Assembly: GCA_016936815.1 (NCBI GenBank)
Contig: JAFGXD010000090.1
Location: 67,833 to 131,832, forward strand
DNA length: 64,000 nucleotides
Direction: 5' to 3'
Source of the DNA: Bacteroidales bacterium
GTDB lineage: Bacteria > Bacteroidota > Bacteroidia > Bacteroidales > GWF2-38-335
The number at the start of each line of letters is the position of its first letter. Position 1 is the first letter of the stretch. A program made the translations under genes and the position numbers. This document shows positions 7,151 through 56,882 of this stretch, piece after piece. The notes under the pieces were generated by a model that saw nothing but the letters and a program-made list of their open reading frames with translations, was not told the origin of the DNA and did not search any database.

Positions 7151-7161
7151 TTCAACAAATT

Positions 7162-12552: not shown

Positions 12553-12853
12553 AAGTTTATTTGCCTATTTCAGCTTACCGACAAGATTCTTCGAAAGAAA
12601 ATGCAAGAAGTTTAGGGGAAGTTGACCAGTCGTTTAACGGGAAGACCCTCATTGTCAATTAGATTTTACAATTTTTTTGATTAGTAATTATATAGTTTGT
12701 TGCCATTACTTTATTGCATTTTACAGCAGAAAAAATACTATTTATCAATTTTTAGTCAATATAACCATTAATTGATGAACTAAACTTTTGTGTGTAAATA
12801 AAAATGTCTATTTTAGTTTCTCCAAAATTATTTTACGGTTTAAACTTTGTCCT

Positions 12854-19126: not shown

Positions 19127-19130
19127 AATT

Positions 19131-20150: not shown

Positions 20151-20333
20151 AATAGCAAATCTAATTAATTTTTTAATGTTTTTTTCAATGAAGAGTCAAA
20201 TATATATAACAGGGCTATTACAAAAGAACAATAGCCCGTAACCAAATTAACCGGATATATTGCATCAACCGGCTCAAAATGCGATACAGCAACTATTTAT
20301 TATGTGATAAGCTTCCGAATTTAAAATTAAGAA

Positions 20334-21461: not shown

Positions 21462-21507
21462 AAAAACTATTTTTAATATACAAATATAATAAAAAACACA
21501 AGTCCAA

Positions 21508-21558
21508 CTGCACAAATTTTAATAAATATATGCAGTTAGCTGCATAAATTTTAATAAA
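21508..21558. repeat. 19-nt direct repeat (CTGCAcAAATTTTAATAAA / CTGCAtAAATTTTAATAAA, 32-nt period) flanking a short palindrome TGCAG-TTAG-CTGCA
   Basis: Read directly at 21508-21526 and 21540-21558, with the palindrome at 21531-21544. It lies just upstream of a TATATTTG -7 box (minus strand, 21481-21488) for the ATPase gene. Confidence 0.6.
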
Positions 21559-29508: not shown

Positions 29509-29634
29509 GCTTTAAGCGATTTAATTTTAAAAAAAACTTACGCAAGTTAGGTAAAAATAGTGAAAAACGATTTATACCAAATAAAAGATTAAACGGGAAA
29601 AATATTTAGTAAGTTTCGTTTATAAAATAAAACA

Positions 29635-30318: not shown

Positions 30319-30455
30319 TTTATTTTTTTTTGAAAAATACAATAAAAATATGATTTATCAAACATTTATTTTTTTCCAGATAAAAACAAAAATGATTACT
30401 CTTCTAACTAAGGCTAATTAGTAGATTGACAAATAACAAATTATTGCCTAAATGA

Positions 30456-41203: not shown

Positions 41204-41778
41204 ATTTGTTTTTCCATTAAAATCTTCAAATTTCTTTTACCATTCTGAATAAAACTCTTAACTTTTTTTAAGTCGAAGCCTGTTAATTCCGCAACCTCGT
41301 TATACGACTTATCTTCTAAATAAAACAGCTTTATACATTGTTTTTGTTCTTCATTTAATTGATTAATGGCTACTTCAAGTTTTTCAAGTTTTATTTCTTT
41401 GTCTTGTTCATTATCATGATACATTTCCTCACCATTTTCCATAAACAGATGAAGTTCGTTTTTATACTGTTCTTGAAATTTCTGCTTGTACTTCTCAGAT
41501 CGTAGGGTAAGCAGACAATGATTTCTGGACACAACATGAAGCCATGGTTTAAATTTTTCTACCTTGTGTTCTTTAAGGTCGGTAAAAAGTTTCTCGAAAA
41601 TAAGCATTACCGCCTCGCTTGCATCGTCGGAATTGTGTAGGTACTTCATGCAAACGTAGAAAACAAAATCAGTATGTCGTTCGAACAAAATGCCAACAAT
41701 AGATTTATCGCTAGTTTTGCGATATTTTTCTATTAACTCACTATCTGTTAATTTATGTGCGTTTTTAAATCCAAACAT
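41200..41778 (-). CDS. ECF-type RNA polymerase sigma-70 factor
   Basis: 192 aa. Region 2 (DASEAVMLIFEKLF...FKPWLHVVSRNHCL) and region 4 HTH (QKQCIKLFYLEDKSYNEVAELTGFDLKKVKSFIQNGKRNL). Translationally coupled to the anti-sigma gene. Confidence 0.85.
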   Translation of the reverse strand: MFGFKNAHKLTDSELIEKYRKTSDKSIVGILFERHTDFVFYVCMKYLHNSDDASEAVMLIFEKLFTDLKEHKVEKFKPWLHVVSRNHCLLTLRSEKYKQKFQEQYKNELHLFMENGEEMYHDNEQDKEIKLEKLEVAINQLNEEQKQCIKLFYLEDKSYNEVAELTGFDLKKVKSFIQNGKRNLKILMEKQI

Positions 41779-41957: not shown

Positions 41958-44180
41958 ATGAAAAAGATTCAAATAATTGTTTTTTCACTTTTTTACCTTT
42001 ATAATTATTCTCAAAATAGGGAATTAGACTCGTTGCAAAACTTATACAATAACACCGAAATTGATTCAGTTAAAATAGAGCTGTTAAATGAGGAAATAGG
42101 ATATTTTTATGAACGCAATAATCCGGACTCTGCAATTTATTATTACGAAAAATCAATAGAAATGGCGAACAGTCATTTGAAAAATATTGACAAAAAACCT
42201 AGCAATGAACAATTAACCTATTTAAAACTTAAAGCAAATGCATTACGATATATAGGAATAGTATATTATGAAAAGGGAACTTACGATAAAGCAATAAAAA
42301 ATGTACTGGAATCTTTAGGAATTTATGAAGGTATTATTGGGAATACAAAAAATAAACAAATTATTATTGATGCAAAAAACGGTCAAACTTACTGTTTTAT
42401 TCCCTTAGGAAATATTCATTACGATCAAAGTAGTTTCGATAAAGCACTCGAATACTATACAAAAGCACTAAGAATACATGATGAATTAGGAAATGTTCAG
42501 CCTAAATCCGGTTGTAATGTTAATATTGGAAATGTGTATTTTGAGAAAAAACAACTTGATAAAGCGTTGGAATTCTATTTTAAAGCGTTGGAAATAGCTG
42601 AATCTTTAGGTGATAAAAAATCTATGTCGAAATGCTATAATAATATTGCCAATGTATTTTCCTTACAGAACAAATTTGAGAATGTAATAGAGTATTATTC
42701 TAAATCTTTGAAAATTAAAGAAGAAACATCCGACAAGCATGGTGTTGCTATGGTAAATACAAACCTTGCCGAATTATATGTAAGAATGGCAGATTCACTT
42801 TACGAAAAAAACAATCCGGCAAAGAGACTTGAAGCTCTAAATCTTGCAATAGAACATGGCAAAAGAGGTTTAGAAATAGCTAAAGAAATAGATGCTCTCC
42901 CATTAATAAATCCTTCGGCAAGTGCTATAATGAGAGCTTACAAAAGATTAGGAAACTTTTCGGAGGCATTTAAATATGCTGAAATATATATGGAAAGCAA
43001 GGATAGCATGTTTCAGGATGAAAAAATAAAATCGATTTCCGATGCTGAAAAACGTTTCGAAACAGAAAAAAAGCAATTAATGATTGACAAGCTAAATCAG
43101 GAAAAAGAAATAAATGAATATGAATTGTTAGTACAAAAAGAACAAGCCGACCGTCAGAATCTATTTATATGGTTTATTATTTCCGGTTTGTTGCTTATGG
43201 TTGTTTTTGCTGTATTTATTGTAAACAGACTAAGAATTACACGTAAACAGAAGAAAATAATTGGATTACAAAAAAAGGTGGTCGATGAAAAGAATATTCG
43301 TTTAAACCAACATATAGAAGAAATAAGTGCACAACGCGATGAAATTGAAGCCCAAAGAGATTTGCTTGAAGTTCAAAATCAACACATTGAATATCAAAAG
43401 CAAAGAATAACAGACAGTATTAATTATGCCAAAAGAATTCAAGAAGCAGTTTTGCCAACCGGTGAATATGCCAACAGAATTTTAGGTGAACATTTTATTT
43501 TATTTAAACCAAAAGATATTGTTTCTGGAGATTTTTATTGGGCAACCAGAATAAATAATTTTCTTATTGTTACAGTAGTAGATTGCACAGGACATGGAGT
43601 TCCGGGAGCTTTCATGAGTATGCTGGGCGTATCTTTTCTCAACGAAATTGTTAGAAAAAAAGAAGTTACTAAAGCATCTGATGTTCTCGATAGTTTAAGA
43701 AGTTCAATAATTGAAGCTCTGCAGCAAAAGAAAATGCTGATGCATAACAGTAGAGTTTCTTTAAGTGTAAAAGATGGTATGGATTTGGTATTATGTGTTT
43801 TAGATATTAATACAAAAATTCTGGAATTTGCCGGCGCCAATAATCCCCTATATATTGTAAAAACCAATAAAGAATTAATTGAATTATTGCCAGATAAACA
43901 ACCGGTTGCCATTTACGAAAAAATGAAACCTTATACTAACAATACCATTCAACTGGAAAAAGGAGATGCTGTTTATTTATGTACAGATGGTTTTTCTGAC
44001 CAGTTCGGGGGAGAGAAATGCAAGAAATTTATGGCTAAAAACCTAAAAGTATTATTTGTAGAAATTGCTGAAAAGTCTATGCAAGAACAAAATGTCATTC
44101 TTAATGATACCTTTAATAAATGGAAAGGAGATACCGACCAAATTGATGATGTTACAATTTTGGGATTAAGAATAGAATAA
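41958..44180 (+). CDS. Sensor phosphatase: signal peptide, extracytoplasmic TPR array, TM helix, heptad signalling helix, SpoIIE/PP2C domain (paralog 1)
   Basis: 740 aa. TM helix LFIWFIISGLLLMVVFAVFIV. Heptads HIEEISA/QRDEIEA/QRDLLEV/QNQHIEY/QKQRITD. PP2C motifs VSGDFYW, DCTGHGVPGAFMSMLG, KDGMD, TDGFSDQFGG, QIDDVTILGL. Confidence 0.85.
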   Translation: MKKIQIIVFSLFYLYNYSQNRELDSLQNLYNNTEIDSVKIELLNEEIGYFYERNNPDSAIYYYEKSIEMANSHLKNIDKKPSNEQLTYLKLKANALRYIGIVYYEKGTYDKAIKNVLESLGIYEGIIGNTKNKQIIIDAKNGQTYCFIPLGNIHYDQSSFDKALEYYTKALRIHDELGNVQPKSGCNVNIGNVYFEKKQLDKALEFYFKALEIAESLGDKKSMSKCYNNIANVFSLQNKFENVIEYYSKSLKIKEETSDKHGVAMVNTNLAELYVRMADSLYEKNNPAKRLEALNLAIEHGKRGLEIAKEIDALPLINPSASAIMRAYKRLGNFSEAFKYAEIYMESKDSMFQDEKIKSISDAEKRFETEKKQLMIDKLNQEKEINEYELLVQKEQADRQNLFIWFIISGLLLMVVFAVFIVNRLRITRKQKKIIGLQKKVVDEKNIRLNQHIEEISAQRDEIEAQRDLLEVQNQHIEYQKQRITDSINYAKRIQEAVLPTGEYANRILGEHFILFKPKDIVSGDFYWATRINNFLIVTVVDCTGHGVPGAFMSMLGVSFLNEIVRKKEVTKASDVLDSLRSSIIEALQQKKMLMHNSRVSLSVKDGMDLVLCVLDINTKILEFAGANNPLYIVKTNKELIELLPDKQPVAIYEKMKPYTNNTIQLEKGDAVYLCTDGFSDQFGGEKCKKFMAKNLKVLFVEIAEKSMQEQNVILNDTFNKWKGDTDQIDDVTILGLRIE

Positions 44181-44228
44181 TAATCATTAAAAGAATAGCT
44201 AATAATTAGAAATTCTTATGTTTGTATT

Positions 44229-46490
44229 ATGAACAATTTTTTCCTTGTCCTAATATTATGTGTTTTTCTTTTGAAAACCGGAATCTCTCAAACAAAGAAA
44301 ATTGATAGCTTGACCAATCAAATAGAAATTCTACCTTCCGGTGCCGAAAAAGTGGATACCTACATCAGACTTTTTCATGTTTATAGAGACATTAATACCG
44401 ATTCCGCTATTTTTTGCATTGAAAAAGCTGAAAATGAAGCAAAAAAAATTAACAATCCAAAAAAAATAGGGGATGTTAAACTAAACTACGGTATTTTATG
44501 TCGCTATACCAATGAATTCGATAAATCGGAAAATTACTATCTTGAAGCAATTGACATCTATAGAAAACATGCTGATTCTTTGGGTGTTTCATCAGGATAT
44601 AATAATTTGGGTTCACTTATGGCCGATTTGGGAAAGTTTTCTGAAGCTCTAAACTATTATCTTTCTGCTTTGCGAATTGATGAAAGTTTGCAAGACTTAG
44701 GTAATCTGGCTAATTCTTATAATAATGTTGGACTTATTCATTACAATTTGGAAAACTATGACAAAGCAATGGATTATTATCTAAAATCCTTAGATGTAAG
44801 AAAACAATTGGGCGACACCTTAGAATTTGCTCTTATTTACAACAACATAGGAATTTTATACTATTTCGAAGAAAAATACGAAAAGACATTGCAATATTTC
44901 AATATGGCTTTGGAAATTTGGGAACGTTACGGAAGAAAACGAAGAATGGCAATGCCTTTATATAATCTTGCAGAACTTTATATGGAGCTTTTTCAGTATA
45001 AAGAAGCTCTAAGCAATATTCAAAAAGCTACTACTATTAACGAGGAATTATGCGACAGCTTTGAGCTAATTTCTAATTATAATTTAATGGCTGAAATATA
45101 TCAGAAACGTAAAGACTACAAGAATGCAGAAATAAACTATCTTAAGGCTCTTGAACTTACTAAAGTAACAAAATCATTTGCTGAAATACATGCTGTTTAC
45201 GGCAAAATATCCGATTTTTATGAGGAGACAGGAAACCCCGGAAAAGCTTTGAAATTTTTTAAGGAATATCATGCTCTTAACGATTCCATTTTTAACCTTA
45301 AATCTACTGAGGCTATGGCAAAAATGCAAGCCGAATACGATAGAGATAAAAAACTGCTTTTAAAAGATGCTCAAATTAAGCAACAAGCTGTAGAGAAACA
45401 AAAAATGCAGGCCGAAAAGGCTAAACAACAAACAATTAACATATTTCTAATTGTAGGTCTGGGATTGGCTTCTGTGTTGGGAATTGTAATTTTTATGAAC
45501 TATAAGCGAAAAAAACGCGACAATTTGGTTCTAACCCTAAAGAACGAAGAAATAAGACAACAAAAAGAAGAAATTGAAGCCCAAAGAGATGAAATTGAGT
45601 GTCAAAGAGATGAGATTGAAATTCAGAGAGATAGTGTAATGGCTCAAAGAGATTTAATATCTAAGCAAAAAAAATCTTTAGACGACAGTATTGTATATGC
45701 CGAAAGAATTCAAAGGGCTTTATTACCATCCCGGGAAATGCTTAAAAAGGAATTCGAAGACTATTTTATTAGCTTTTTGCCCAGAGATGTGGTTTCAGGA
45801 GACTTTTATTGGAGTACAAGAATGGGAAAAAGCCTAATTATTGCTGCCGCAGATTGTACAGGACATGGAGTTCCGGGAGCATTAATGAGTATGTTAGGTA
45901 TTTCTTTTCTTAACGAAATTGTTAACGGTTATGGAATACAAAAAACTAACGAAATAGCTAACAGATTAAGAGAAATGGTAATTCAGGCATTAAAACAAAA
46001 AGAGCTTGATTCTACACAAAAAGACGGAATGGATTTAGCAATTGTTAACATTAATATGGAAACCCTTAGCTTAAGTTTTACCGGAGCAAACAATCCACTT
46101 TATATTATCAGCAATAATTCAAGAACCGACTTGGAAAAATATAAATCGGCAGAACTTCAAGATGTTGCACTTTACGAAATTAAAGGAGATAAAATGCCTG
46201 CAGCAATTCATGTTGTTATGCAACCTTTTAATTCAACAAATATTAAAATTTTTAACGGCGATAGTGTTTATCTATTTTCCGATGGATTTGCCGATCAGTT
46301 TGGAGGAGAAACTATTAATGGAAAGAAATTCAAATATAAAGCCTTCAAAGATTTACTTCTAAAAATTAATAATAAACCTATGTGCGAACAAAAAGAAATT
46401 ATTGAAAAAACTTTTTTTAATTGGAAAGGAGCTTTCATGCAAATGGACGACTTACTGGTAATGGGAATTAGAGTCTTTTCCAAAAAATAA
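44229..46490 (+). CDS. Sensor phosphatase TPR-TM-signalling helix-SpoIIE/PP2C (paralog 2)
   Basis: 753 aa with the same architecture. It has six heptads (QKEEIEA QRDEIEC QRDEIEI QRDSVMA QRDLISK QKKSLDD). PP2C motifs VSGDFYW, DCTGHGVPGALMSMLG, KDGMD, SDGFADQFGG, QMDDLLVMGI. Confidence 0.85.
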   Translation: MNNFFLVLILCVFLLKTGISQTKKIDSLTNQIEILPSGAEKVDTYIRLFHVYRDINTDSAIFCIEKAENEAKKINNPKKIGDVKLNYGILCRYTNEFDKSENYYLEAIDIYRKHADSLGVSSGYNNLGSLMADLGKFSEALNYYLSALRIDESLQDLGNLANSYNNVGLIHYNLENYDKAMDYYLKSLDVRKQLGDTLEFALIYNNIGILYYFEEKYEKTLQYFNMALEIWERYGRKRRMAMPLYNLAELYMELFQYKEALSNIQKATTINEELCDSFELISNYNLMAEIYQKRKDYKNAEINYLKALELTKVTKSFAEIHAVYGKISDFYEETGNPGKALKFFKEYHALNDSIFNLKSTEAMAKMQAEYDRDKKLLLKDAQIKQQAVEKQKMQAEKAKQQTINIFLIVGLGLASVLGIVIFMNYKRKKRDNLVLTLKNEEIRQQKEEIEAQRDEIECQRDEIEIQRDSVMAQRDLISKQKKSLDDSIVYAERIQRALLPSREMLKKEFEDYFISFLPRDVVSGDFYWSTRMGKSLIIAAADCTGHGVPGALMSMLGISFLNEIVNGYGIQKTNEIANRLREMVIQALKQKELDSTQKDGMDLAIVNINMETLSLSFTGANNPLYIISNNSRTDLEKYKSAELQDVALYEIKGDKMPAAIHVVMQPFNSTNIKIFNGDSVYLFSDGFADQFGGETINGKKFKYKAFKDLLLKINNKPMCEQKEIIEKTFFNWKGAFMQMDDLLVMGIRVFSKK

Positions 46491-46566
46491 AACCTTATTA
46501 GTTTTAACCCGTAAACGGAAAAGTTTGAAACGAATTAATGGTATTATTGCCTAAGAAAACTAAAAT

Positions 46567-48765
46567 ATGAGAAAAATCCTACTGTTTGTTCTAATATTTA
46601 ACCTTTTGTCTTATAATTTCTTAGCAAATGAAATAGATAGTTTAATGAATTTAATTAAACTTGAAAAAAACGATTCTATTAAAGCTTCATTGTATTTGGA
46701 AGCTTATGTTTATACAAAATATAACAATTTTGATTCTTCCCTAAAATATATTAAAGAAGCTGAAAAAATAGCCAAAGCCCACAAAATGCAAGTTCTTCTT
46801 GCCATGTGTTATAACGATTTCGGTAATTACTACGAAAAATGCAGTGAATACGATAAATCTTTGGAATATTATAATAAATCTTTGGAAATTTATTCGAAAC
46901 ACCAACATAAAAAAGGAATTGCCGATGCCTACGTAAATATGGGAATTGTTCAGGAAAAAACAGGCAATTACGAAAAATCTTTGCAATTATATTTAAAAGG
47001 TCTTGAAATAGACGAACAAAGAGGAGATTCTGCTTCAATTGCAGGAAGTTACAATAACATAGGATTAGTATTTAGGAGAATTGGCGATTATAATAAGTCT
47101 AGGGAATATCTACTAAAATCTGTTGAAATAAAAAAGAAATTACCCGATAAAAACAGCCTTGCTATTACCCTTAACAACCTTGGGGTGGCAGAAATAATGA
47201 TGGAAGATATTCCCGCAGGTCTGAAATATTTTAAAGATGCACTAAAAATTTATGAAGAATTAAATAACATACGAGGTATTGCCGATGCTTCAGGAAATAT
47301 TGGAAATGTTTACCGAAAAAATAAAGATTACGAAAATGCACATAAATATCTGCTTTTTGCACTTGAAAAAAGACAAGAAATGAAAGAGTATTTTGGGCAA
47401 GCAAAAAATCTTATAATGATTGCCGACAATTTGCGTGAATCAGGTAAAACTAAAGAAGCAATGGTTTATGCAAATAAAGGACTTGAACTGGCACAAAAAA
47501 TAAAAACTCCTGAAATAGAAATGGAATCGTATAGAAGCATTTCAAATATTTATTCTGAAAAAGGAGATTATAAAAACGCCTTGTCTTTTTACATTAAAAT
47601 GAGCGAATTTAAAGACAGCCTTTACAAAGCAGGCATTTCATCTACAATACAGGAACTAGAAGCAAAATATGAATTTTCTAAAAAGCAGGAAGAAATAGCA
47701 ACTCTTGAAAAAGAAAAACTAGCCGATAAACTAAAAATTGCTGAAGAAAAAGAAGCCAATCGTCAACAAAAACTAACTAACGAAAAACAAAAAATTGCAC
47801 TTTTTGCTGCCTTAATAGGATTGCTAATAATTTCCATTTTTTCTATTGTAGTATTCAGGCTTTTTAGACAAAAACGACAGGCTAATATTTTACTTAACCA
47901 ACAAAAAGAGGAAATCCTTTCCCAAAGAGATGAAATAGAGGCACAACGAGATTTGGCAGCACAACAAAGAGACCTTATCTCGGAACAAAAACAAGATATT
48001 ACTGATAGTATTCAATATGCATATAAAATACAATCGGCTATTTTTCCAAATCCTGAAGAAATTAAACTGGTACTAAACGACTTTTTTATTTTTTATAAAC
48101 CACGTGATATTGTTTCAGGAGATTTCTACTGGGTTTCTAAGCAAGGGAAAAAGGTAATTATTATAGCTGCCGATTGCACAGGACACGGGGTCCCGGGAGC
48201 TTTTATGAGTATGTTGGGTGTAGCCTTTCTTAATGAAATAGTAAATAAAGAAAACATTAGCTCTCCCGATACTATCTTAAACCGCTTGAGAGAAAACATT
48301 ATTCTTGCCCTAAAACAAACCAACCAGTCGGGCGAACAAAAAGACGGAATGGATGTGGCCGCAATTACTATAGATACAGAAAACAATACCGTAAGTTTTT
48401 CGGGCGCAAACAACCCTCTTTACCTTATTAAAAATAATAAATTGCTTGAAATAAAAGGCGATAAAATGCCGGTTTCAATTCACACACAAATGAAACCATT
48501 TACTTTGCATAAATTTAATGTTGAAAAAAATGATAATGTATATATTTTCTCCGATGGATTTCCGGATCAGTTTGGAGGACCCAAAGGAAAAAAATTCAAA
48601 TATCAACAGTTTAAACTTTTGCTTGAAAGTATTTCAGAAAAACCTATGGTAGAACAAGAAAAAATTTTAAATGAAACTTTTAATAATTGGATTAATTATT
48701 CAAATAACTATGAAGTAAGATACGAACAAATAGATGATGTGCTAGTAATGGGAATAAAACTTTAA
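46567..48765 (+). CDS. Sensor phosphatase TPR-TM-signalling helix-SpoIIE/PP2C (paralog 3)
   Basis: 732 aa with five heptads (QKEEILS QRDEIEA QRDLAAQ QRDLISE QKQDITD). PP2C motifs VSGDFYW, DCTGHGVPGAFMSMLG, KDGMD, SDGFPDQFGG, QIDDVLVMGI. Confidence 0.85.
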   Translation: MRKILLFVLIFNLLSYNFLANEIDSLMNLIKLEKNDSIKASLYLEAYVYTKYNNFDSSLKYIKEAEKIAKAHKMQVLLAMCYNDFGNYYEKCSEYDKSLEYYNKSLEIYSKHQHKKGIADAYVNMGIVQEKTGNYEKSLQLYLKGLEIDEQRGDSASIAGSYNNIGLVFRRIGDYNKSREYLLKSVEIKKKLPDKNSLAITLNNLGVAEIMMEDIPAGLKYFKDALKIYEELNNIRGIADASGNIGNVYRKNKDYENAHKYLLFALEKRQEMKEYFGQAKNLIMIADNLRESGKTKEAMVYANKGLELAQKIKTPEIEMESYRSISNIYSEKGDYKNALSFYIKMSEFKDSLYKAGISSTIQELEAKYEFSKKQEEIATLEKEKLADKLKIAEEKEANRQQKLTNEKQKIALFAALIGLLIISIFSIVVFRLFRQKRQANILLNQQKEEILSQRDEIEAQRDLAAQQRDLISEQKQDITDSIQYAYKIQSAIFPNPEEIKLVLNDFFIFYKPRDIVSGDFYWVSKQGKKVIIIAADCTGHGVPGAFMSMLGVAFLNEIVNKENISSPDTILNRLRENIILALKQTNQSGEQKDGMDVAAITIDTENNTVSFSGANNPLYLIKNNKLLEIKGDKMPVSIHTQMKPFTLHKFNVEKNDNVYIFSDGFPDQFGGPKGKKFKYQQFKLLLESISEKPMVEQEKILNETFNNWINYSNNYEVRYEQIDDVLVMGIKL

Positions 48766-48860
48766 AATAAAAATAACGGATATTTTTGTAACAAAAACTA
48801 CTTAAATTAAGTAATTAATAGGCAATAAAATCATTTTTTTTCAAAAACATACGATAAAGA

Positions 48861-48891
48861 TTTGCAACAAATAGTATTTGTATTATATTTA
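48861..48891 (+). promoter_or_regulatory. Possible promoter TTTG-N19-TATATTTA upstream of the kinase / DUF1987 pair
   Basis: TTTG at 48861-48864 and TATATTTA at 48884-48891 (last base A rather than G). It lies 20 nt upstream of ATG 48911. Confidence 0.35.
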
Positions 48892-48910
48892 TGGGTTTTA
48901 AATAAGAAAA

Positions 48911-50035
48911 ATGTTAGAAGAAACGGAAAATAGAAAGTTGAATTTTGCTCTGGAACTGTTCAGAATAATGCAGAAAGACAATCTGGGTTATATTTACAGG
49001 GGTAGATTCAATCAGGAGATAACCGACAGTATCTTGTCGCTTACCGAAACTAATTTAGATAAGGAAGAAGAATCTCCTAAAATTAAAAAGAGAGTATATT
49101 CCATTATGGTAGAATGTTTACAAAACATTACAAGACATCAGGATGATACCAAAGAAGAATCCAATGATAGTTTTGGTGTTTTTGTTATTCAAAAAGAAGG
49201 TGAGAAATACTACATTACCAGCGGTAATCTTATTGATAAAGAAAACATTCCAAACATAACCGACCTTATTGAAAAGATAAACAGTCTCGATAAAGACGAG
49301 TTGAAAGATTATTATAAAGAGGTTTTGTCTACCGGTGAATTATCGAGCAAAGGAGGTGCCGGTTTAGGTCTCATTGATATGGCTAGAAAATCCGGAAATA
49401 AACTGGCATATAGGTTTAAAGATGTTTCAGAAAAATTTGCGTATTTCTACTTACATACTATTCCTTCATTAAGTGTTGAAGGTGAAGATTTCGCCGACGA
49501 TGAATCGCTAACAAATATTGTTCATATTCACGAAATTTTAAATAACGAAAACATACTTCTAATTTTTAATGGGGTATTTAATCAGGGTTCACTCTTAAGT
49601 CTGCTTAACACTATTGAAGGTCAAATGGCCGGCCCTGCTAATACCAGAAGAAAAATGTTTTACATTGTGGTTGAAATGCTTCAAAACATTGTAAAACACG
49701 GATATAGTAATAAAAACAGTATTGGAAATCCCGGTCTGTTTTTAATAAGTGAAAAAGATGATAATTATTTTCTTACAACAGGAAATTATATTGAAAAACA
49801 AAATGTTGCAACTTTAAAGAAAAAATTAGAGAAGGTAAACAGTTTATCAGGAAAAGATTTGGAAAATTATTATAATGAGAGATTAGTTGACTTCGACAGC
49901 GACAATAATAAAAAATCGGGGTTGGGCGTTATTGACCTTAAAATGAAATCGGAAAATGAACTAAGGTTCGAACTTACAGAATTGGACGACAAAATGTCGT
50001 TTTTTGTACTTCAAGCCAAGGTGAAAATTACATAA
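48911..50035 (+). CDS. Tandem-duplicated SiaB/RsbW-like GHKL serine/threonine protein kinase (two modules in one polypeptide)
   Basis: 374 aa, read as two homologous halves of about 185 aa offset by about 187 residues. N-box-like E-x3-N-x3-H occurs in both (VECLQNITRH with E68/N72/H76; VEMLQNIVKH with E255/N259/H263). ATP-lid GGAGLGLIDMARKSGN is in half 1 versus KKSGLGVIDLKMKSEN in half 2. Other aligned blocks: FGVFVIQKEGEKYYITSGN / PGLFLISEKDDNYFLTTGN and SLDKDELKDYY / SLSGKDLENYY. Confidence 0.7.
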   Translation: MLEETENRKLNFALELFRIMQKDNLGYIYRGRFNQEITDSILSLTETNLDKEEESPKIKKRVYSIMVECLQNITRHQDDTKEESNDSFGVFVIQKEGEKYYITSGNLIDKENIPNITDLIEKINSLDKDELKDYYKEVLSTGELSSKGGAGLGLIDMARKSGNKLAYRFKDVSEKFAYFYLHTIPSLSVEGEDFADDESLTNIVHIHEILNNENILLIFNGVFNQGSLLSLLNTIEGQMAGPANTRRKMFYIVVEMLQNIVKHGYSNKNSIGNPGLFLISEKDDNYFLTTGNYIEKQNVATLKKKLEKVNSLSGKDLENYYNERLVDFDSDNNKKSGLGVIDLKMKSENELRFELTELDDKMSFFVLQAKVKIT

Positions 50036-50038
50036 TTT

Positions 50039-50410
50039 ATGAATTCATTTATTTTAGAACCTGCAGAAGATACTCCGGAAATAAATTTTAATCCGGAAAC
50101 CAATGTTTTCTATATTTCTAAAAGATCTTTACCCGAAAATGCAATTGATTACTATGGGCCCGTATTAGAATGGATTCAAGGCTTCTTAGATGAGAAGCCT
50201 AAGCAACTTACCATTGAATTTAAACTTGAGTATTTTAATACTGCCTCGGCAAAACAGTTGGCTAAACTGCTTTTGGTTTTAGAAAAATATAAAGAAAGCA
50301 CAAAAATATTGGTTAATTGGTTTTATAAACCTGAAGATAAAGACATGTTAGCTTCCGGAACCAGATTTTCAAAACTTATTCCTATTGATTTTAATTTTAT
50401 CGAGTATTAA
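50039..50410 (+). CDS. DUF1987 protein (SiaC-like regulatory phosphoprotein)
   Basis: 123 aa. ILEPAEDTPEINFNPETNVFYISKRSLPENAIDYYGPVLEWIQ and FKLEYFNTASAKQL match the DUF1987 pattern as I remember it. Thr68 (codon 50240-50242) sits in the YFNT motif. The start is 3 nt after the kinase stop. Confidence 0.75.
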   Translation: MNSFILEPAEDTPEINFNPETNVFYISKRSLPENAIDYYGPVLEWIQGFLDEKPKQLTIEFKLEYFNTASAKQLAKLLLVLEKYKESTKILVNWFYKPEDKDMLASGTRFSKLIPIDFNFIEY

Positions 50411-50413
50411 AAT

Positions 50414-52777
50414 TTATACCCTTATTCCAAAAACAAGCACATCGTCCATTTGCTGAGAATTACCCACCCAACCATCAAACTCCCCACTTAATTCAGAAAG
50501 TTGCTCTTTTATGCTTTTATTACTTAAACCTACAAGAAGATTTTCGAAACGCGAAGCCATGTATTTGCTATTGTCTTCTCCGCCAAACTGGTCTTTATAA
50601 CCATCTGTAAACAAATAAATCATGGTTCCTTTATCAAATTCAAGTTTATGTGTATTATAAACAACTTCTTCTTTTTGTGAGAAATAGCCTCCTATATTAA
50701 AAATATCTCCTTCAACTTGTTTTAGAATTCTGTTTTTAATTAAAAATATTGAATTATTAGCTCCTGCAAAAAATATTTCTCCGGAGTTTTTGTCAATTTT
50801 TAATAAAGAAATCACCATTCCATCGTTTTGAGCATCGTCGGCATTTTCTCCTTGTTTTAGAGCCTTTATTACTCCTTTGTTAAGATTGTATAGTATTTCA
50901 GATGGCTCAAATATTTCTTTTTCATTAACAATTTCACTAAGTAAAGTATGTCCAATCATACTCATAAAAGCCCCCGGGACCCCGTGTCCTGTGCAATCAA
51001 CAATCGCTAAAAACACCATATTCTCTTTTTCCGAAAACCAATAAAAATCTCCTGAAACAACATCCTTCGGTCTAAAAAACACAAACGATTCGGGAAAAAC
51101 TCTTTCAATATCTTTATTTGATGGCAAGATTGATTCCTGAATTTTTTTTGCATATTGTATGCTATCGGTAATAATCTTATGCGATTTGTGTAATAACTCT
51201 CTTTGTAATTCAATTTCACTGTTTCTTTTAAGCAATTCTCTATTTGCTCTTTTCTTTAGTTGATTTCTGCCAAAAAGCATTATTGCCAAAGTAAACAAGA
51301 AAAGTAATCCACCAATGGCTGTGTAAATTATTGTTTTATTTCTTTGTTGTTCATTTTTATGCCGTGAATCCGAAAGTTGTTGCTCCTTTTTTAATAGTTC
51401 ATTTTTTTTCTTTATTTCATCTAACTTATATCTTATCTGCATTTCCGACAACAACTTAGATTTTTCTTTGTCCATTATTGAATCTTTATACTGCGAATGA
51501 ATATTTAGATAATCGAATGCCAATTCCTTTTTTCCTAATTTTTCTAATGCATGAGCAAGCTCAAAACTGCTTTCTTTTATTCCTTCAAAATAACCAATAG
51601 AAAAAGAAATTTTCATTGCTTCCTCCAATAAAATAATTGCAACATTAATTTGATCTCTATGAATTTTAATTCCGGCAATTATTATCTTGCTGTTTACCAG
51701 CCCCTTTCTGTCGTTTATCTCATATTGAAATGTAGCACTCTTTTCAATATAATTTAAAGCATTTTTGTATTGTTCTAAATGAAAATACAGAGTACCAATA
51801 TTAAACAACAATGTTGCTTGTTCAGGCTTAAAGCCCTTTTTTTCAGCAAGTTCATATGCTTTTTCAAAATAAATTATTGCCGAATCGGCCTTTTGTATTT
51901 GATTGTAAATACTTCCAATATTGGTAAGTGCATTTACAAGGCCTTTTGTATCACCTCTTTCTATACAAATTCTCTGAGCATTTACACAATATCCCATAGC
52001 TGTTTCCCATTCTCCCTGCTTATTTTGTATGCTGCTAATATTAAGATATAAAGAAGCTAATAATGATTTGTCATTAATTCTTTCTAATATTTCCATTGCA
52101 TTAAAATAATGTTCAATAGCTAATTTTAAGCTTCCAATATCTTCATATATTACGCCTAAATTCGAAAGGTTAGTTGCAATACCAAGTTCATTTTTGTTTA
52201 TTCTGCATATTTCAAGCGATTTTTCATAAAGTTCAATAGCTTTTTGATGTTGACCTGTTAACTTATAACAAAGCCCCAGATTGCTTACGGGCTTACTGTC
52301 TTCTCCCGGTTTACCATGTTTCTGAAGAACATCTATAGAATTTTTTAAATATTGAATAGAAGTGGAATAATCGCCTTTATCCAAATAAATTAAACCTAAA
52401 ATGTTGTATTGAAGGCCTTCCAGACGTTTATTTTTTCCTTTTTTGGCAAGTTCGAAAGCCCTAAGCGATAAAATTTCAGCAGAATCAAGATTTCCTCTAA
52501 GCAAATGATAGGTTGCAAGATTGTCGTAGCTAAATAATAACCCGTTGTTATATTTATTTTTCTTAGCTAGAACTAATGCCTGATAAGAATACTGTGCATT
52601 TAATTGTGGATTAGAATATTTGTATTCGCTAGCTAAACTATTTAATAGGTCGGTTTTTTGGTTTTCATTTTGTGCATAAGAAAGAGCCAATTTCAAACTA
52701 TCTGCAATATTATTCGAAAATCCGGAAGAGAAACAGATAATAAAAAATATTACAAGTCTATTTTTCATAAATTTCAA
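50414..52777 (-). CDS. Sensor phosphatase TPR-TM-signalling helix-SpoIIE/PP2C (paralog 4)
   Basis: 787 aa with a signal peptide and a long TPR array. TM helix IIYTAIGGLLFLFTLAIMLFG. Three heptads (RNSEIEL QRELLHK SHKIITD). PP2C motifs VSGDFYW, DCTGHGVPGAFMSMIG, NDGMV, TDGYKDQFGG, QMDDVLVFGI. Confidence 0.85.
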   Translation of the reverse strand: MKFMKNRLVIFFIICFSSGFSNNIADSLKLALSYAQNENQKTDLLNSLASEYKYSNPQLNAQYSYQALVLAKKNKYNNGLLFSYDNLATYHLLRGNLDSAEILSLRAFELAKKGKNKRLEGLQYNILGLIYLDKGDYSTSIQYLKNSIDVLQKHGKPGEDSKPVSNLGLCYKLTGQHQKAIELYEKSLEICRINKNELGIATNLSNLGVIYEDIGSLKLAIEHYFNAMEILERINDKSLLASLYLNISSIQNKQGEWETAMGYCVNAQRICIERGDTKGLVNALTNIGSIYNQIQKADSAIIYFEKAYELAEKKGFKPEQATLLFNIGTLYFHLEQYKNALNYIEKSATFQYEINDRKGLVNSKIIIAGIKIHRDQINVAIILLEEAMKISFSIGYFEGIKESSFELAHALEKLGKKELAFDYLNIHSQYKDSIMDKEKSKLLSEMQIRYKLDEIKKKNELLKKEQQLSDSRHKNEQQRNKTIIYTAIGGLLFLFTLAIMLFGRNQLKKRANRELLKRNSEIELQRELLHKSHKIITDSIQYAKKIQESILPSNKDIERVFPESFVFFRPKDVVSGDFYWFSEKENMVFLAIVDCTGHGVPGAFMSMIGHTLLSEIVNEKEIFEPSEILYNLNKGVIKALKQGENADDAQNDGMVISLLKIDKNSGEIFFAGANNSIFLIKNRILKQVEGDIFNIGGYFSQKEEVVYNTHKLEFDKGTMIYLFTDGYKDQFGGEDNSKYMASRFENLLVGLSNKSIKEQLSELSGEFDGWVGNSQQMDDVLVFGIRV

Positions 52778-52778
52778 T

Positions 52779-55700
52779 TTATTCTTTTATTGAAAAACCT
52801 ATTACAAGAACATCATCTATTTGTCTTTGGTCTTTTTTCCAATCGGTAAATGCTAACTCTAAAGCTTCCTTTTGTTGCTGCATTTTAAGATTATTGTTAG
52901 CTGTTAGGAATTCCTCGAATCTGGCAGCCAAAAACTTATTATTATTTTCTCCGCCAAACTGGTCTTGAAATCCGTCGGTGTACATATAAACAGAGGTTTT
53001 CTCTACAATTTTAATATTATAATTTGTAAACTCAACATCTTCGCTAAATGAAAAGAATCCTCCTATAGAATAAATATCTCCTGCAATAATATTAGTCTTA
53101 TTTCCTTGAACCAGAAGAACATTGTGGTTGGCCGCAGATATTTCCAGACTGTTATTTTTCTTATCGTAACAGCAAACCGAAACGTCCATTCCATCGTCTT
53201 GTGTGTTTAGCGATTGTTCTGTTTGTTTTAAAACAGAAATAACTTGCTTATTTAGTAAACTAAGAATTTCAGAAGGTTTATGAATTTGTTTTTCTTTTAC
53301 AATTTCGTTAAGCAAAGTATTACCAATCATACTCATAAAAGCTCCAGGCACACCATGTCCGGTGCAATCGGCTACAGCAATAAATAATTTGTCTTCTGTT
53401 GTATGAAGCCAATAAAAATCGCCGGAAACAATATCTCTTGGTTTAAATAGAATAAATGATTCTGATAATATTTCTTTTAACTCGTCAATTCCCGGCAAAA
53501 TAGAATCCTGAATTTTTTTGGCATAAATAATACTGTCGGTAATTAAATTATGCGATTTTTCGAGTTCCTGATTGGCAATTTCGAGTTGGTCTTTTTGAGC
53601 CATAATCTCTTCTTTCTGTTGCATAATTTCTTCTTCAGCAGCTTTTACTTTACTTATATCCGAATCTATTGCAACCACTTTAATAACTTTTCCAAGCTCG
53701 TCTAAAACAGGTGTTAATGTTGTTTGTGTCCATAATTTTCCGTCTTTTGTTCTGGTCATAGATTCATAAATAACGGAAGCTTTTTCATCAACACATTTAT
53801 GAAAAATTTCGGCAATTCTTGGATTGGAACTAGATTTCAAAATGTTTCCACCTTTAATGTCAATGTATTGTTGAAGAGTAAAACCATATTTCTTGGTGAG
53901 ACTTTCGTTTACCCACTCAAAATTACCTTTTTCGTCCATTATTATTACAGCATTGTCGGTTTCTCTGGCAACAATAGAAAGTTTTTCAAGTTCCTTATTT
54001 GCATTTTCAAGCAAATCGCGCTGCGACATTATTTCTTCTTTCTGAATAAGTATTTCTTCTTCAGCTTGTTTTAGTTTGTTAATATTGGATTCAATAAGTA
54101 CAATTTTTCTAATATTTTTATCCCCGTCCATTACCGGAGTTAGAGTTGTTTGCATCCAAATATTTTTGTCTTTTGCAGGAAACTGAGCAGAATAAGAAAC
54201 CGACCTTTTTTCATTAAGACATTTATGAAAAATTTCATGTATTCTTTTACTGGAGCTGGATTCTAATATGTTTTTACCGTATTTAGCAATAAACTCATCC
54301 AAAGTATAACCATAAAGCCGGGTAAAGGCTTCGTTTGCCCATTCAAAATTACCTACCCCATCCATTATTAAAATGCTGTTATCGGTTTCTCTGGCTACCA
54401 ATGAAAGTTTTTCAAGCTCCGTATTTATGGTAATTAGTTGGTCGTTTGCCGATTGTATTTCTTCCTTCTGTTGCTGAATTTCTGCAGTTCGGTCGCTAAT
54501 AATTTTTTCTAACTTACGATTATCTGCTTTAAGCTTAATTGAGTAGATTCTCAGGACAATAAAAATAAGTATTACCCCAACACCAACATAAATTAAATAT
54601 GCCCACCAGGTTCTGTGCCAGGGAGGCAAAATTTCAAATGAATATACTGCAACCGGGCTTTCTAACCCGTATAAATTTTTAGATTTAACTTCAAATTTAT
54701 ATTCCCCTTCCGGAAGATTTGTATATTTAGCAGAAGTGTCTTTACTCCAATTTGTCCACTCATCGTCGTAACCAACCAGTCTCCATGAATAAAGGGTTCT
54801 TTCTTCGTAATGATAATATAAAGAGGCAAAACTAATTTCAATTGAGTTATTGCTAAAATTTATTTTAGGCAAGGAGTCTATTCCCTTAACATACATACCA
54901 TTAAATATTACCGAGTTTTTTCCAATAACTACTTTTTTAATTATTGTTTTTATGTTTTCTATTTCATTAATAACTATTTCGGGGTTATAACAAAACAAAC
55001 CTTCGTCGCCTCCAAACCAAAATAGTTTTTTAACTGTGTCGGCATAAACCATAAATATTGAACTTGAATTTGGAATATGTGTAAAAGGTTTCTCAATTAA
55101 AAAATATCCCTGATTACTTAATGAAACTACTCCAACTCGCGACTGTCCATTTGTTGCAAGAAACTTATTTCCAATATTTTCACTTGCTCTCTCGATTATA
55201 AATTTTTTTTCTGCCAAGTCCGAAAAAATTTTATTATTTTTTACAAAAAGATTTTCTTCTTTCACAACTGCTGCATCGGGATTATATATATAAGTTTCAC
55301 TTGTATCCATAACCATAAGTTTAGTATCTATAAAAAATGGTTTGGTAAAATTTTTTGGAAGCCCATGCTCAATTGAAAAATAATCTATCCTGCAATTAGA
55401 ACTAATTGAATCCCTGAAGTTTATTCTTGCCATTTTTTGTCCTTCGCTAATCCAACAATCGCCTTTAGAATCGATATAAAAATATTGCAACTCCTCATGA
55501 AAAACATCAATTGACCCTAAGCCTTTCCATTTTTTACCTTCAATTTTATAAATATACAGACCATTATCGTCGCCTATTAAAACATAATCCGTTTGTAAAG
55601 GGTGCTGACGTATTGCCCTGATACGATTATGTTTATTGAATTCTTTGGCTTTCAAACCTTCAATAGTGAAAATTCCTTCTCGTGATGCTGCATAAAGTTC

Positions 55701-56882
55701 TCCATTTATTTCATTAATTGCCAGACATCCGTCTTTTATTCCCTCAACAGGCTGAAAATGAAAATTGGCCGAATTCTTATCAGCAACAGTATTTTCAACA
55801 ATTAACATATACAAACCATCCATTGTAGCTACATAAAGGTTGTTTTTGTACCTAATTGCCTGAATAACAAGCCCGGAAAGACCTGTGTTTTCGCCAAAAT
55901 GAGTAACAGGAGCATCCAAATTCACTCTAGCCAGACCTTTATTAAGCATTATCCACAATACATTGTTTTCATCTACAAAAACATTATTAACTGTTTCTGT
56001 TTCAAGTCCGGTTTGCTTGTTTAATAATCTTTTAAGTTTTCCGCTTCTGTCCATTATTATTACTCCGGCATAATCCGTTGCAAGTAAATAATATCCGTTC
56101 TTTATTACAATTCCGGTATATAAACCATTTGTTTTTATATAATCATCAAAAGAGGTGTGCAAAGGTTTAATTGTATCATCAATAAGACTTAGGATAAAAA
56201 GTCCGTCTTTATTGGTTCCTACAAGAAGTGTATTTTCTGTATAAGGCAAAACAACGTAAACATCTTTATCGGCAAAAAAATCTCCTGAGGGCAACAAAGA
56301 AAGTTGGTTTCCCGAAAACATTGAAAGTCCACTTCCTTTAACATAGGCCAAAATAAAACTTTCTATCTGAAATATTTTAATAATTGGTTGTTCAGACTTT
56401 ATTGTTGATAGGTTTTCGTTCTCAAGAACAAAAATTTTTGAAAGACCATTAAAAACAACTCGGGATTTATCTATTAATATTTGTCTGATTTCGAAACCTA
56501 AATCCTTTTCTGATAATGATTTAGAAATAATATGAGGTGATATTCTTCCAACACTATCGGGTTTTAAATAACCAAAAACGTTGCTGCCTCCAAAATATAT
56601 TCTTCCGTTATGGTCTTTTGCAAGAGATCTGCAAACCCCACCAATTCTTATTGTTCTCCAACTTACACCGTCGTATTCTAAAATTCCATTACCATTTCCA
56701 ACATAAACCATTCCTCTGTTATCTTTTACAAATGCCCAGTTTTGGGGATGTCCGTTGTAATCGGCCGGACTAAAATTTCTAATTTCCGGAGATCCTATTC
56801 CAATGGAATTTAAGTCTTGTCCCTGTACATAGGTGAAAGAAAAAAACAGAAAAATCAGAATTTTGTTCTTATATTTATGCAT
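52779..56882 (-). CDS. Sensor phosphatase: signal peptide, twin Reg_prop beta-propellers plus Y_Y_Y domain (HTCS-type periplasmic sensor), TM helix, 2 x (coiled coil + PAS), SpoIIE/PP2C
   Basis: 1367 aa. The periplasmic part is about 730 aa and ends in YSWRLVGYDDEWTNWSKDTSAKYTNLPEGEYKFEVKSKN (Y_Y_Y). TM helix WWAYLIYVGVGVILIFIVL. Two near-identical PAS modules follow. PP2C motifs VSGDFYW, DCTGHGVPGAFMSMIG, DDGMD, TDGFQDQFGG, QIDDVLVIGF. The stop is 1 nt from the start of paralog 4. Confidence 0.85.
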   Translation of the reverse strand: MHKYKNKILIFLFFSFTYVQGQDLNSIGIGSPEIRNFSPADYNGHPQNWAFVKDNRGMVYVGNGNGILEYDGVSWRTIRIGGVCRSLAKDHNGRIYFGGSNVFGYLKPDSVGRISPHIISKSLSEKDLGFEIRQILIDKSRVVFNGLSKIFVLENENLSTIKSEQPIIKIFQIESFILAYVKGSGLSMFSGNQLSLLPSGDFFADKDVYVVLPYTENTLLVGTNKDGLFILSLIDDTIKPLHTSFDDYIKTNGLYTGIVIKNGYYLLATDYAGVIIMDRSGKLKRLLNKQTGLETETVNNVFVDENNVLWIMLNKGLARVNLDAPVTHFGENTGLSGLVIQAIRYKNNLYVATMDGLYMLIVENTVADKNSANFHFQPVEGIKDGCLAINEINGELYAASREGIFTIEGLKAKEFNKHNRIRAIRQHPLQTDYVLIGDDNGLYIYKIEGKKWKGLGSIDVFHEELQYFYIDSKGDCWISEGQKMARINFRDSISSNCRIDYFSIEHGLPKNFTKPFFIDTKLMVMDTSETYIYNPDAAVVKEENLFVKNNKIFSDLAEKKFIIERASENIGNKFLATNGQSRVGVVSLSNQGYFLIEKPFTHIPNSSSIFMVYADTVKKLFWFGGDEGLFCYNPEIVINEIENIKTIIKKVVIGKNSVIFNGMYVKGIDSLPKINFSNNSIEISFASLYYHYEERTLYSWRLVGYDDEWTNWSKDTSAKYTNLPEGEYKFEVKSKNLYGLESPVAVYSFEILPPWHRTWWAYLIYVGVGVILIFIVLRIYSIKLKADNRKLEKIISDRTAEIQQQKEEIQSANDQLITINTELEKLSLVARETDNSILIMDGVGNFEWANEAFTRLYGYTLDEFIAKYGKNILESSSSKRIHEIFHKCLNEKRSVSYSAQFPAKDKNIWMQTTLTPVMDGDKNIRKIVLIESNINKLKQAEEEILIQKEEIMSQRDLLENANKELEKLSIVARETDNAVIIMDEKGNFEWVNESLTKKYGFTLQQYIDIKGGNILKSSSNPRIAEIFHKCVDEKASVIYESMTRTKDGKLWTQTTLTPVLDELGKVIKVVAIDSDISKVKAAEEEIMQQKEEIMAQKDQLEIANQELEKSHNLITDSIIYAKKIQDSILPGIDELKEILSESFILFKPRDIVSGDFYWLHTTEDKLFIAVADCTGHGVPGAFMSMIGNTLLNEIVKEKQIHKPSEILSLLNKQVISVLKQTEQSLNTQDDGMDVSVCCYDKKNNSLEISAANHNVLLVQGNKTNIIAGDIYSIGGFFSFSEDVEFTNYNIKIVEKTSVYMYTDGFQDQFGGENNNKFLAARFEEFLTANNNLKMQQQKEALELAFTDWKKDQRQIDDVLVIGFSIKE
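53650..54500 (-). repeat. Internal tandem duplication of a (coiled-coil + PAS) module, about 142 aa / 425 nt per copy
   Basis: Copy 1 is AEIQQQKEEIQSANDQLITINTELEKLSLVARETDNSILIMDGVGNFEWANEAFTRLYGYTLDEF...IWMQTTLTPVMD. Copy 2 is EEEILIQKEEIMSQRDLLENANKELEKLSIVARETDNAVIIMDEKGNFEWVNESLTKKYGFTLQQY...LWTQTTLTPVLD. Confidence 0.8.

Follow-up and report, generated by a model that had tools for sequence, protein, structure and literature searches.

A putative SiaABC-type threonine-phosphorylation switch without SiaD, surrounded by five sensor phosphatases, in a Bacteroidales genome

SiaABCD of Pseudomonas aeruginosa consists of a PP2C phosphatase (SiaA), a kinase (SiaB), a DUF1987 phosphoprotein (SiaC) and a diguanylate cyclase (SiaD), and it is the unphosphorylated form of SiaC that activates SiaD. 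To our knowledge, the system is known only as a Pseudomonas biofilm circuit acting through cyclic diguanosine monophosphate (c-di-GMP). A stretch of 64 kb from a Bacteroidales bacterium (contig JAFGXD010000090.1, positions 67,833 to 131,832; hereafter the window) holds five genes for large sensor phosphatases around one kinase gene and one small DUF1987 gene, and this raises the question of what such a cluster regulates, and by how many inputs, when no cyclase gene lies beside it. The answer that we favour, with moderate confidence, is that the region (41958-56882 of the window) encodes a SiaABC-type Thr-phosphorylation switch that lacks SiaD and integrates several periplasmic signals.

The seven proteins of the cluster

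The genes are listed below with their window coordinates; P1 to P5 denote the phosphatases.

41958-44180, + strand: P1, 740 aa; signal-peptide-like N-terminus, predicted periplasmic TPR array, transmembrane (TM) segment 404-422, heptad linker, SiaA-type PP2C domain
44229-46490, + strand: P2, 753 aa; TPR sensor, TM segment 405-423, SiaA-type PP2C domain
46567-48765, + strand: P3, 732 aa; TPR sensor, TM segment 412-430, SiaA-type PP2C domain
48911-50035, + strand: tandem SiaB-family Ser/Thr kinase, 374 aa; two SiaB domains, residues ~1-187 and ~188-374
50039-50410, + strand: SiaC-family (DUF1987) phosphoprotein, 123 aa; predicted acceptor Thr68
50414-52777, - strand: P4, 787 aa as an open reading frame (ORF); TPR sensor, TM segment 483-501, SiaA-type PP2C domain
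52779-56882, - strand: P5, 1367 aa; Reg_prop beta-propellers and Y_Y_Y, TM segment 761-779, two PAS domains, SiaA-type PP2C domain

All seven ORFs were found at the coordinates and on the strands given by a first-pass annotation that had been made from the DNA sequence alone. P1, P2, P3, the kinase gene and the SiaC gene share one direction, with successive gaps of 48, 76, 145 and 3 nt, and P5 and P4 run convergently towards the SiaC gene, from which P4 is separated by 3 nt. On independent Logan contigs P3 was called as an identical 732-aa gene and P4 as a gene of 784 aa; the P4 start is probably the ATG at 52768, three codons later than in the ORF, which would give the same 784 aa.

The small protein is a member of the Pfam SiaC family (PF09345, 121.5 bits with a cut-off of 24.5), in agreement with its earlier designation as a DUF1987 protein, and aligns with the SiaC structures 6k4f and 6kko_C in the PDB (1.8e-9). 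Thr68 is aligned to the phosphorylated Thr of P. aeruginosa SiaC, which lies in the peptide LLYLNTSSIK (PMC7647112), and the same position is occupied by Thr in 63 and by Ser in 6 of 69 homologues from related loci. The protein is thus a SiaC-family protein with the acceptor residue in place, and it is placed at the level of the family and not of the SiaC equivalog.

The kinase ORF contains two DUF6272 domains (254 bits in Pfam) and is matched in two stretches by the NCBIfam model for SiaB-family kinases (NF038262; 279.8 bits, cut-off 85), which places it in the SiaB family, although not at the SiaB equivalog level; its sequence also matches that of SiaB itself (PDB 6kko_A, 3e-15). The AlphaFold model of the kinase, built from 31 homologues, had a pLDDT (predicted local distance difference test) of 84 and a pTM (predicted template modelling score) of 0.82. 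When this model was compared with known structures by Foldseek, the top matches were the two SiaB chains 6kko_A and 6kko_B (template modelling scores on the target of 0.88 and 0.86), followed by the anti-sigma kinases SpoIIAB, RsbW and UsfX (0.6-0.73, probability 1.0). The description of the kinase as GHKL/RsbW-like therefore holds at the level of the fold, within the SiaB family, but its expected placement in HATPase_c_2 does not: neither HATPase_c_2 nor STAS was matched by the kinase or by SiaC in Pfam at E<=0.01, and only DUF6272 and SiaC were found.

The proposed duplication of the kinase proved to be a true tandem of two SiaB-family domains. The halves are 31% identical to each other, and the predicted catalytic Glu (E61 of SiaB) is kept in both, as E68 and E255, together with the Asn after it, the GN motif and the GLG..D..KS lid; the full GAGLGL of SiaB is present in the N-terminal half. 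The pTM of the model indicates a defined arrangement of the two domains relative to each other, and, as SiaB is dimeric (PMC7278518), the simplest reading of the tandem is that of a covalent pseudo-dimer of SiaB.

The five large proteins have a SpoIIE domain (PF07228) at the C-terminus with 41-74 bits in Pfam against a cut-off of 25 (P1 73.8, P2 41, P3 56, P4 60.7 and P5 66 bits), so that their initial assignment as SpoIIE/RsbU-type PP2C proteins is borne out, and the motifs on which it was based (VSGDFYW, DCTGHGVPGA(F/L)MSM, DGM, (T/S)DG(F/Y)xDQFGG and Q(I/M)DD(V/L)) are legible in the translations. The best NCBIfam model for each of them is SiaA, matched over the C-terminal 270-310 residues (E-values of 1.3e-57, 4.2e-45, 6e-50, 1.7e-54 and 2.5e-57 for P1 to P5); with this part alone aligned, all five fall below the full-length SiaA equivalog cut-off of 700. 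The PP2C domain of P1 has the SiaA PP2C structure as its sole PDB sequence match (6k4e, 1.1e-32). Equivalents of the SiaA active-site residues D457, D474, G477, D600, G601 and D653 (PMC7647112) are present in P1 to P5, all of which are thus SiaA-type PP2C proteins with intact metal-binding residues; P4 has a Val at the position equivalent to D534 of SiaA.

TPR arrays were found by Pfam in P1, P2, P3 and P4 (TPR_12 in P2 scored 164 bits), and the N-terminal sensors of these four proteins align with the TPR region at the N-terminus of the NCBIfam FimS model (1e-24 to 1e-28). P5 contains Y_Y_Y (57.5 bits), Reg_prop (33 bits) and PAS_9 (72 bits) domains. The sensor layout described at first, with TPR arrays in four proteins and a propeller/Y_Y_Y module in one, is correct in this respect, but the two cytoplasmic PAS domains of P5 had been missed. 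In all of the large proteins the N-terminus is basic and then hydrophobic; each has a single strong TM segment with a K/R-rich stretch behind it, and the PP2C domain is reached through a heptad linker of the type QKEEIEAQRDEIEAQRD. This pattern fits a periplasmic sensor joined to a cytoplasmic phosphatase, with the signal peptide and the topology predicted from the sequence. Overall, the three families of the SiaA/SiaB/SiaC core, which had been proposed to be present here, are matched specifically, beyond a generic resemblance to PP2C, GHKL and STAS-like proteins.

Conservation of the kinase-SiaC pair and the proposed switch

The cluster was compared with 82 non-redundant related loci (numbered with the prefix L), using flanks of up to 10 kb, ORFs called by a simple longest-ORF rule and hidden Markov models built from the proteins of the window; many of the related contigs end near the kinase-SiaC pair, and the counts of PP2C genes are therefore lower bounds. 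Full-length tandem kinases formed 1940 clusters at E<=1e-5, and at least 589 matches to the tandem kinase were obtained among contigs representing one genome per species. Nearly all of the carriers listed belong to the Bacteroidales, Marinilabiliales or Salinivirgaceae, and some bear the label Chlorobiota. A separate SiaC gene directly 3' of the kinase gene was present in 59 of the 82 loci, either single (53 loci) or followed by a second SiaC gene (6 loci: L026, L029, L030, L032, L033 and L055). In 12 further loci SiaC is fused to the kinase, giving a kinase-kinase-SiaC protein of ~505 aa; the kinase stood without a detected SiaC in 10 loci and was followed by the contig end in one. That the kinase and SiaC work together is strongly indicated by the natural fusions and by the near-universal adjacency of the two, and the tandem-kinase/SiaC pair alone is the evolutionarily conserved unit.

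Matches to the Bacteroidota-type promoter consensus, TTTG-N19-20-TAnnTTT[G/A], were found before P1, before the kinase gene and before P5:

41843-41873, + strand: promoter-like element TTTG-N19-TATATTTG, ~85 nt 5' of P1; a consensus match only
48861-48891, + strand: promoter-like element TTTG-N19-TATATTTA, ending 19 nt before the kinase start codon
56929-56958 (approximate), - strand: promoter-like element TTTG ... TAGTTTTG, 5' of P5; from a pattern scan, a consensus match only

The element of P1 sits inside a divergent intergenic region of 179 nt. A sequence of the form TTTG-N19-20-TA..TTTA ends 17-32 nt before the kinase start both in the window and in many relatives, and the closest relatives have the string GTATTATATTTA in common, which, preceded by TTTG, is found 5' of the orthologous kinase in L004, L006, L007, L008, L011, L012 and others. 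Because the element is shared in this way, the kinase-SiaC pair probably has its own promoter, even in the present cluster. The element upstream of P5 possibly serves a predicted P5-P4 operon. A general scan for sigma-70-type promoters and terminators was uninformative, the counts being equal to the shuffled expectation.

One to three contiguous PP2C genes, convergent on the pair, follow SiaC in 15 of the 82 loci (one gene in six loci, two in six and three in three). SiaA-type PP2C genes occupy the gene positions +2, +3 and +4 in 13/77, 12/73 and 5/66 cases, compared with 0-4% of the gene positions elsewhere in the 10-kb flanks, and PP2C genes are thus strongly enriched just after SiaC. The architecture of P5 (Y_Y_Y-PAS-PP2C) recurs after the kinase-SiaC pair in 7 other loci. 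From the enrichment and this recurrence it follows that the placing of P4 and P5 downstream is an arrangement that recurs; P1-P3, the trio upstream, have no counterpart in the 82 loci compared and are peculiar to this genome. With three PP2C genes upstream and two downstream of the pair, the cluster in the window is the largest that was seen.

In the switch that we propose, the cytoplasmic tandem SiaB kinase would phosphorylate the SiaC-like protein on Thr68, and up to five membrane-anchored SiaA-type phosphatases, activated by signals, would remove the phosphate again. Each phosphatase would carry a different periplasmic sensor, namely four FimS-like TPR arrays and one propeller/Y_Y_Y module as in hybrid two-component systems (HTCS), the latter combined with cytoplasmic PAS domains. 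With several differing sensor phosphatases acting on one small protein, its degree of phosphorylation would represent the sum of several signals from the envelope or the environment. By analogy with SiaC, the unphosphorylated protein would bind a target encoded elsewhere and alter its activity. The phosphotransfer, the action of all five phosphatases on this SiaC, the signals sensed and the target are parts of the scheme that we infer; convergence of the five enzymes on one SiaC is suggested by their adjacency, with PP2C genes being enriched after SiaC, and by their family type.

Several observations weigh against this scheme. The substrate of the phosphatases is assigned by homology and gene order. 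Neither of the two central proteins reaches its NCBIfam equivalog cut-off (the kinase has 139 bits with the SiaB model NF038264, where 225 are required, and SiaC has 70.9 bits, where 150 are required), and their function may have shifted; the glycine-rich lid of the C-terminal kinase half is weakened, with KSGLGV instead of GAGLGL. The PP2C domains of P1 to P5 are 38-52% identical and their sensors 24-30%, values that point to old paralogues and not to a recent amplification. No contiguous PP2C gene follows SiaC in 67 of the 82 loci, and a PP2C gene directly upstream of the kinase was found in none of them (0/82). Given these loci and the promoter-like element of the pair, the five phosphatase genes are not obligatory members of the unit, and their products could act on other substrates. 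The seven genes do lie together, as the term 'island' in the first-pass annotation implied, but the label overstates how obligatory their linkage is. Finally, a cyclase or another partner may lie elsewhere in the genome.

In one alternative the five sensor phosphatases would be independent signalling proteins, their clustering being a matter of genome organisation and their substrates lying elsewhere, so that some or none of them would act on SiaC. We regard this as unlikely, though it is the most serious of the alternatives: most relatives of the kinase-SiaC pair are without adjacent PP2C genes, the pair has a promoter-like element of its own, the upstream trio has no counterpart in the 82 loci, the paralogues appear to be ancient, and SiaA-type PP2C genes are also scattered away from the pair on Bacteroidota contigs. 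It fits poorly with the strong enrichment of PP2C genes immediately after SiaC, with the specifically SiaA-like character of the PP2C domains, and with the canonical PP2C-SiaB-SiaC operons that exist in the same phylum (L005 and L062); nor does the window offer an alternative substrate gene (STAS or another DUF1987) within its 64 kb.

Candidate outputs of the switch

Pfam detected no GGDEF, EAL or STAS family in any scanned ORF of the window, as had been noted at the outset, and the motif GG[DE]EF is absent from all six frames; a co-encoded SiaD, as in a SiaABCD-type module, was accordingly not found within the window. Neighbouring genes were analysed by Pfam scans that took in, on either side of the pair, the nearest two genes other than PP2C genes (143 upstream and 129 downstream proteins), and GGDEF, EAL and STAS were not among the 25 most frequent families in the 82 loci. 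A GGDEF gene as a conserved neighbour, which had been named as something to look for, did not recur next to the pair in these loci. The earlier statement that the target is something other than a cyclase agrees with the absence of a cyclase gene from the 64 kb, but the conclusion is not justified for the whole genome from a stretch of this size.

The most common neighbours of the pair were HtrA (15), DapF (10) and sigma-70-family proteins (10) upstream, and Ion_trans_2 (6), polyprenyl synthase (5), polyphosphate kinase (4) and GyrB (4) downstream; most of them look like lineage synteny. A conserved output gene adjoining the pair was not found in the 82 loci, and no adjacent candidate survives for the non-fused pair. 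For the fused proteins, 8 of the 12 kinase-kinase-SiaC genes are followed by a gene for a ~660-aa pentapeptide-repeat protein with a K+-channel pore at its end (TIGYGD, Ion_trans_2; loci L034, L047, L050, L056 (5149-6684 and 6735-8729), L062, L063, L065 and L080), which suggests that in this paralogous branch the phospho-switch gates an ion channel. Polyphosphate kinase genes are often located near these fusion and K+-channel genes.

A second type of neighbour is found in L005, where an operon at 6421-12648 encodes a GAF-PAS-PAS-PP2C protein, a single-domain SiaB (192 aa), a SiaC (140 aa) and a fusion of TerB with an ABC transporter; the same contig also holds a tandem-kinase/SiaC pair. Likewise, L062 has a single SiaB, a SiaC and a DUF4154-PAS-PP2C protein beside its kinase-kinase-SiaC fusion. 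The occurrence of the K+ channel and the TerB-ABC transporter next to Sia genes shows that the SiaC family is not tied to cyclases, and agrees with an earlier published proposal in which DUF1987 proteins act as modulators of adjacent proteins (PMC8457831). Homologues of the K+ channel, the TerB-ABC transporter, and the RpoD-like and 161-aa sigma factors described below were not found in the window.

On its right-hand side the cluster is bordered by housekeeping genes (HAD phosphatase, S51 peptidase, gpsA and lysS). On the left, ~180 nt upstream of P1, lies a gene for an extracytoplasmic function (ECF) sigma factor (41200-41778, - strand) with its zf-HC2/TPR anti-sigma factor (39959-41203). This pair (39959-41778) had been put forward as a possible target and is not supported as one: three orthologues of the sigma factor (78%, 65% and 60% identical) have kept the TPR anti-sigma partner, and none of the three loci has a PP2C, kinase or SiaC gene nearby (0/3), so that the adjacency in the window is judged coincidental. 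Elsewhere in the Bacteroidota the genes for the sigma factor and the zf-HC2/TPR anti-sigma factor are conserved as a unit of two, and the genes around them are unrelated. In the anti-sigma factor of the window the TPRs are preceded by a long periplasmic stretch that is acidic and of low complexity.

In the five closest relatives (L004, L005, L006, L086 and L087) a different ECF sigma factor, of 161 aa, is encoded divergently next to the kinase. Among themselves these proteins share 61-70% identity, but with the ECF sigma factor of the window only 25-29%. A general link between the 161-aa protein and the switch is not supported, since the kinase was nearby in 0 of 58 evaluable metagenome loci carrying its orthologues, which points to lineage synteny. 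In the same five loci the gene is part of a block, divergent from the kinase-SiaC pair and absent from the window, that also includes OMP_b-brl_2 and a one-TM protein of ~350 aa (e.g. L086:7162-9727). An RpoD-like sigma factor of 286 aa is encoded within one to four genes of the kinase in 13 of the 82 loci, in two arrangements: one in L017, L018, L023, L030, L033, L048, L051, L053, L054 and L059, and one in three gut or rumen metagenome-assembled genomes (L042, L044 and L069), where the gene lies directly upstream on the same strand. It is probably a housekeeping sigma factor in conserved synteny and constitutes a weak lead; the adjacency is noteworthy given the anti-sigma-like fold of the kinase. 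A role in anti-phage defence was considered and discarded, as PADLOC returned only a generic TPR model and one marginal ZorA match, and gave no match for the kinase, SiaC or P5.

These sigma factors bear on a further alternative, in which the tandem kinase itself is the effector and holds a target such as a sigma factor in the manner of RsbW or SpoIIAB, with dephosphorylated SiaC acting as the antagonist. The closest structural relatives of the kinase model after SiaB are anti-sigma kinases, SiaC is structurally akin to STAS antagonists (PMC8457831, PMC7647112), and the module usually occurs as a free-standing two-gene pair, as does rsbV-rsbW; a covalent pseudo-dimer would in addition suit the asymmetric binding of a single target, and sigma-70-family genes are among the commoner ones upstream of the pair (10 of the 143 proteins scanned, including the RpoD-like ones of L042, L044 and L069). 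In P. aeruginosa, however, SiaB does not bind SiaD and SiaC is the effector (PMC7278518), the kinase is without a Pfam HATPase_c_2 match, the RpoD-like neighbour resembles a housekeeping factor and fits lineage synteny, and orthologues of the 161-aa protein (0/58 loci with the kinase) and of the ECF factor of the window (3/3 loci without Sia genes) were found apart from the kinase. An effector role of the kinase appears distinctly improbable. An ordinary SiaABCD system with its diguanylate cyclase encoded elsewhere in the genome is very unlikely: the window covers only 64 kb of the genome and the only proven target of SiaC is a cyclase (PMC8457831), but GGDEF genes are absent from the window, the top families adjoining the pair in 82 loci of different species do not include GGDEF, and the plausible adjacent outputs are a K+ channel or an ABC transporter and no cyclase.

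Relation to known systems and significance

The SiaABC-type switch proposed here shares with SiaABCD the three protein families, including the active site of SiaA, the fold and motifs of SiaB and the position of the acceptor Thr in SiaC, as well as a membrane-anchored phosphatase with a coiled linker before the PP2C domain and the adjacency of the kinase and substrate genes. It differs from SiaABCD in that the window is without SiaD or any GGDEF gene, that two SiaB domains are joined covalently in one kinase, and that five phosphatase genes are present instead of one, with periplasmic TPR or propeller/Y_Y_Y sensors. Moreover, the N-terminal part of the SiaA model is unmatched (the alignments start at about model position 357), and the kinase-SiaC pair usually stands free with its own promoter-like element and scores below the equivalog cut-offs. 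The module would work like SiaABC, yet it is not a SiaABCD system.

In Bacillus subtilis the phosphatases RsbU and RsbP converge on RsbV in the sigma-B partner switch, and SpoIIE, SpoIIAA and SpoIIAB form a related system. The likeness consists of a small phosphoprotein toggled by a GHKL-type kinase and PP2C phosphatases, of more than one phosphatase, each with its own input domain, for one substrate, and of a kinase fold that resembles both SpoIIAB and RsbW. In contrast to RsbV and RsbW, the substrate here is a DUF1987/SiaC protein and not a Pfam STAS protein, the kinase belongs to the SiaB family and not to HATPase_c_2, and the operon contains no sigma factor; an RsbV/RsbW-type pair, defined at the sequence level by a STAS antagonist and a HATPase_c_2 kinase, is therefore not what is found. 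Unlike RsbU and RsbP, the phosphatases are predicted transmembrane sensors with periplasmic domains. The sensors themselves have their counterparts in two other systems, the N-terminal TPR sensors of P1-P4 in the FimS-type TPR sensor kinases of Porphyromonas and the Reg_prop and Y_Y_Y module of P5 in the HTCS of Bacteroides, with the difference that the cytoplasmic output here is a PP2C domain and not a histidine kinase with or without a response regulator.

A number of other features were seen in the window and the related loci. Two very large SprB-repeat proteins with C-terminal sorting domains of the type IX secretion system are encoded at 12788-18589 (1933 aa, with Laminin_G_3) and 32460-37466 (1668 aa, with FG-GAP), and look like gliding-type or surface adhesins; a similar SprB/Laminin_G_3 protein is encoded 3.4 kb from the kinase-SiaC pair in L001. 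Beside the first of these genes, at 18590-21515, genes for a PRiA4_ORF3-like protein, a LuxC-like acyl-CoA reductase and an AAA_14/DUF4143 ATPase are grouped and may represent a small accessory insertion. At 28054-30342 rpoN (sigma-54) and a gene for an OmpR-type response regulator lie next to each other, without an adjacent histidine kinase gene. L005 (3135-4826) and L087 (7018-12223) encode CheR, in two copies, and CheB at a distance of a few kb from the pair, and in L087 these genes adjoin one for a GAF-PAS protein; such chemotaxis-type methylation genes are unexpected in non-flagellated Bacteroidota.

The first-pass annotation had regarded an arrangement of this kind as undescribed in Bacteroidota. 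In our literature search we found no paper on DUF6272, on SiaB- or SiaC-like proteins outside Pseudomonas, on partner switching in Bacteroidota or on slr1658/slr1659, and in this sense the statement holds; the proteins themselves are less novel, as NCBI already names the kinase 'SiaB family protein kinase [Bacteroidales bacterium]' and the module is present in hundreds of species. The five-sensor cluster is an unusually rich instance of this module and no separate phenomenon. As the richest example seen, with five sensors within 15 kb, the window offers a convenient point of entry in the search for the target and the signals.

In the window the Sia three-protein core appears without a cyclase and with a covalently duplicated kinase, and it is present in at least 589 species genomes of the Bacteroidota group. 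DUF1987/SiaC proteins would then be general phospho-regulated adaptors and not cyclase-specific activators, and a candidate substrate would become available for many of the 'sensor phosphatases' of the TPR-PP2C and Y_Y_Y-PP2C types, which are abundant orphans in Bacteroidota. A wider and rather doubtful extension is that the tandem-SiaB/SiaC pair forms a phylum-wide, c-di-GMP-independent switch with a lineage-specific output, of which the cluster in the window would be a hub with five sensors; the output might be an ion channel, a transporter, or a protein that the pseudo-dimeric kinase itself holds in the style of an anti-sigma factor. If true, this would be a major unrecognised regulatory route in a phylum for which Ser/Thr partner switching lacks description.

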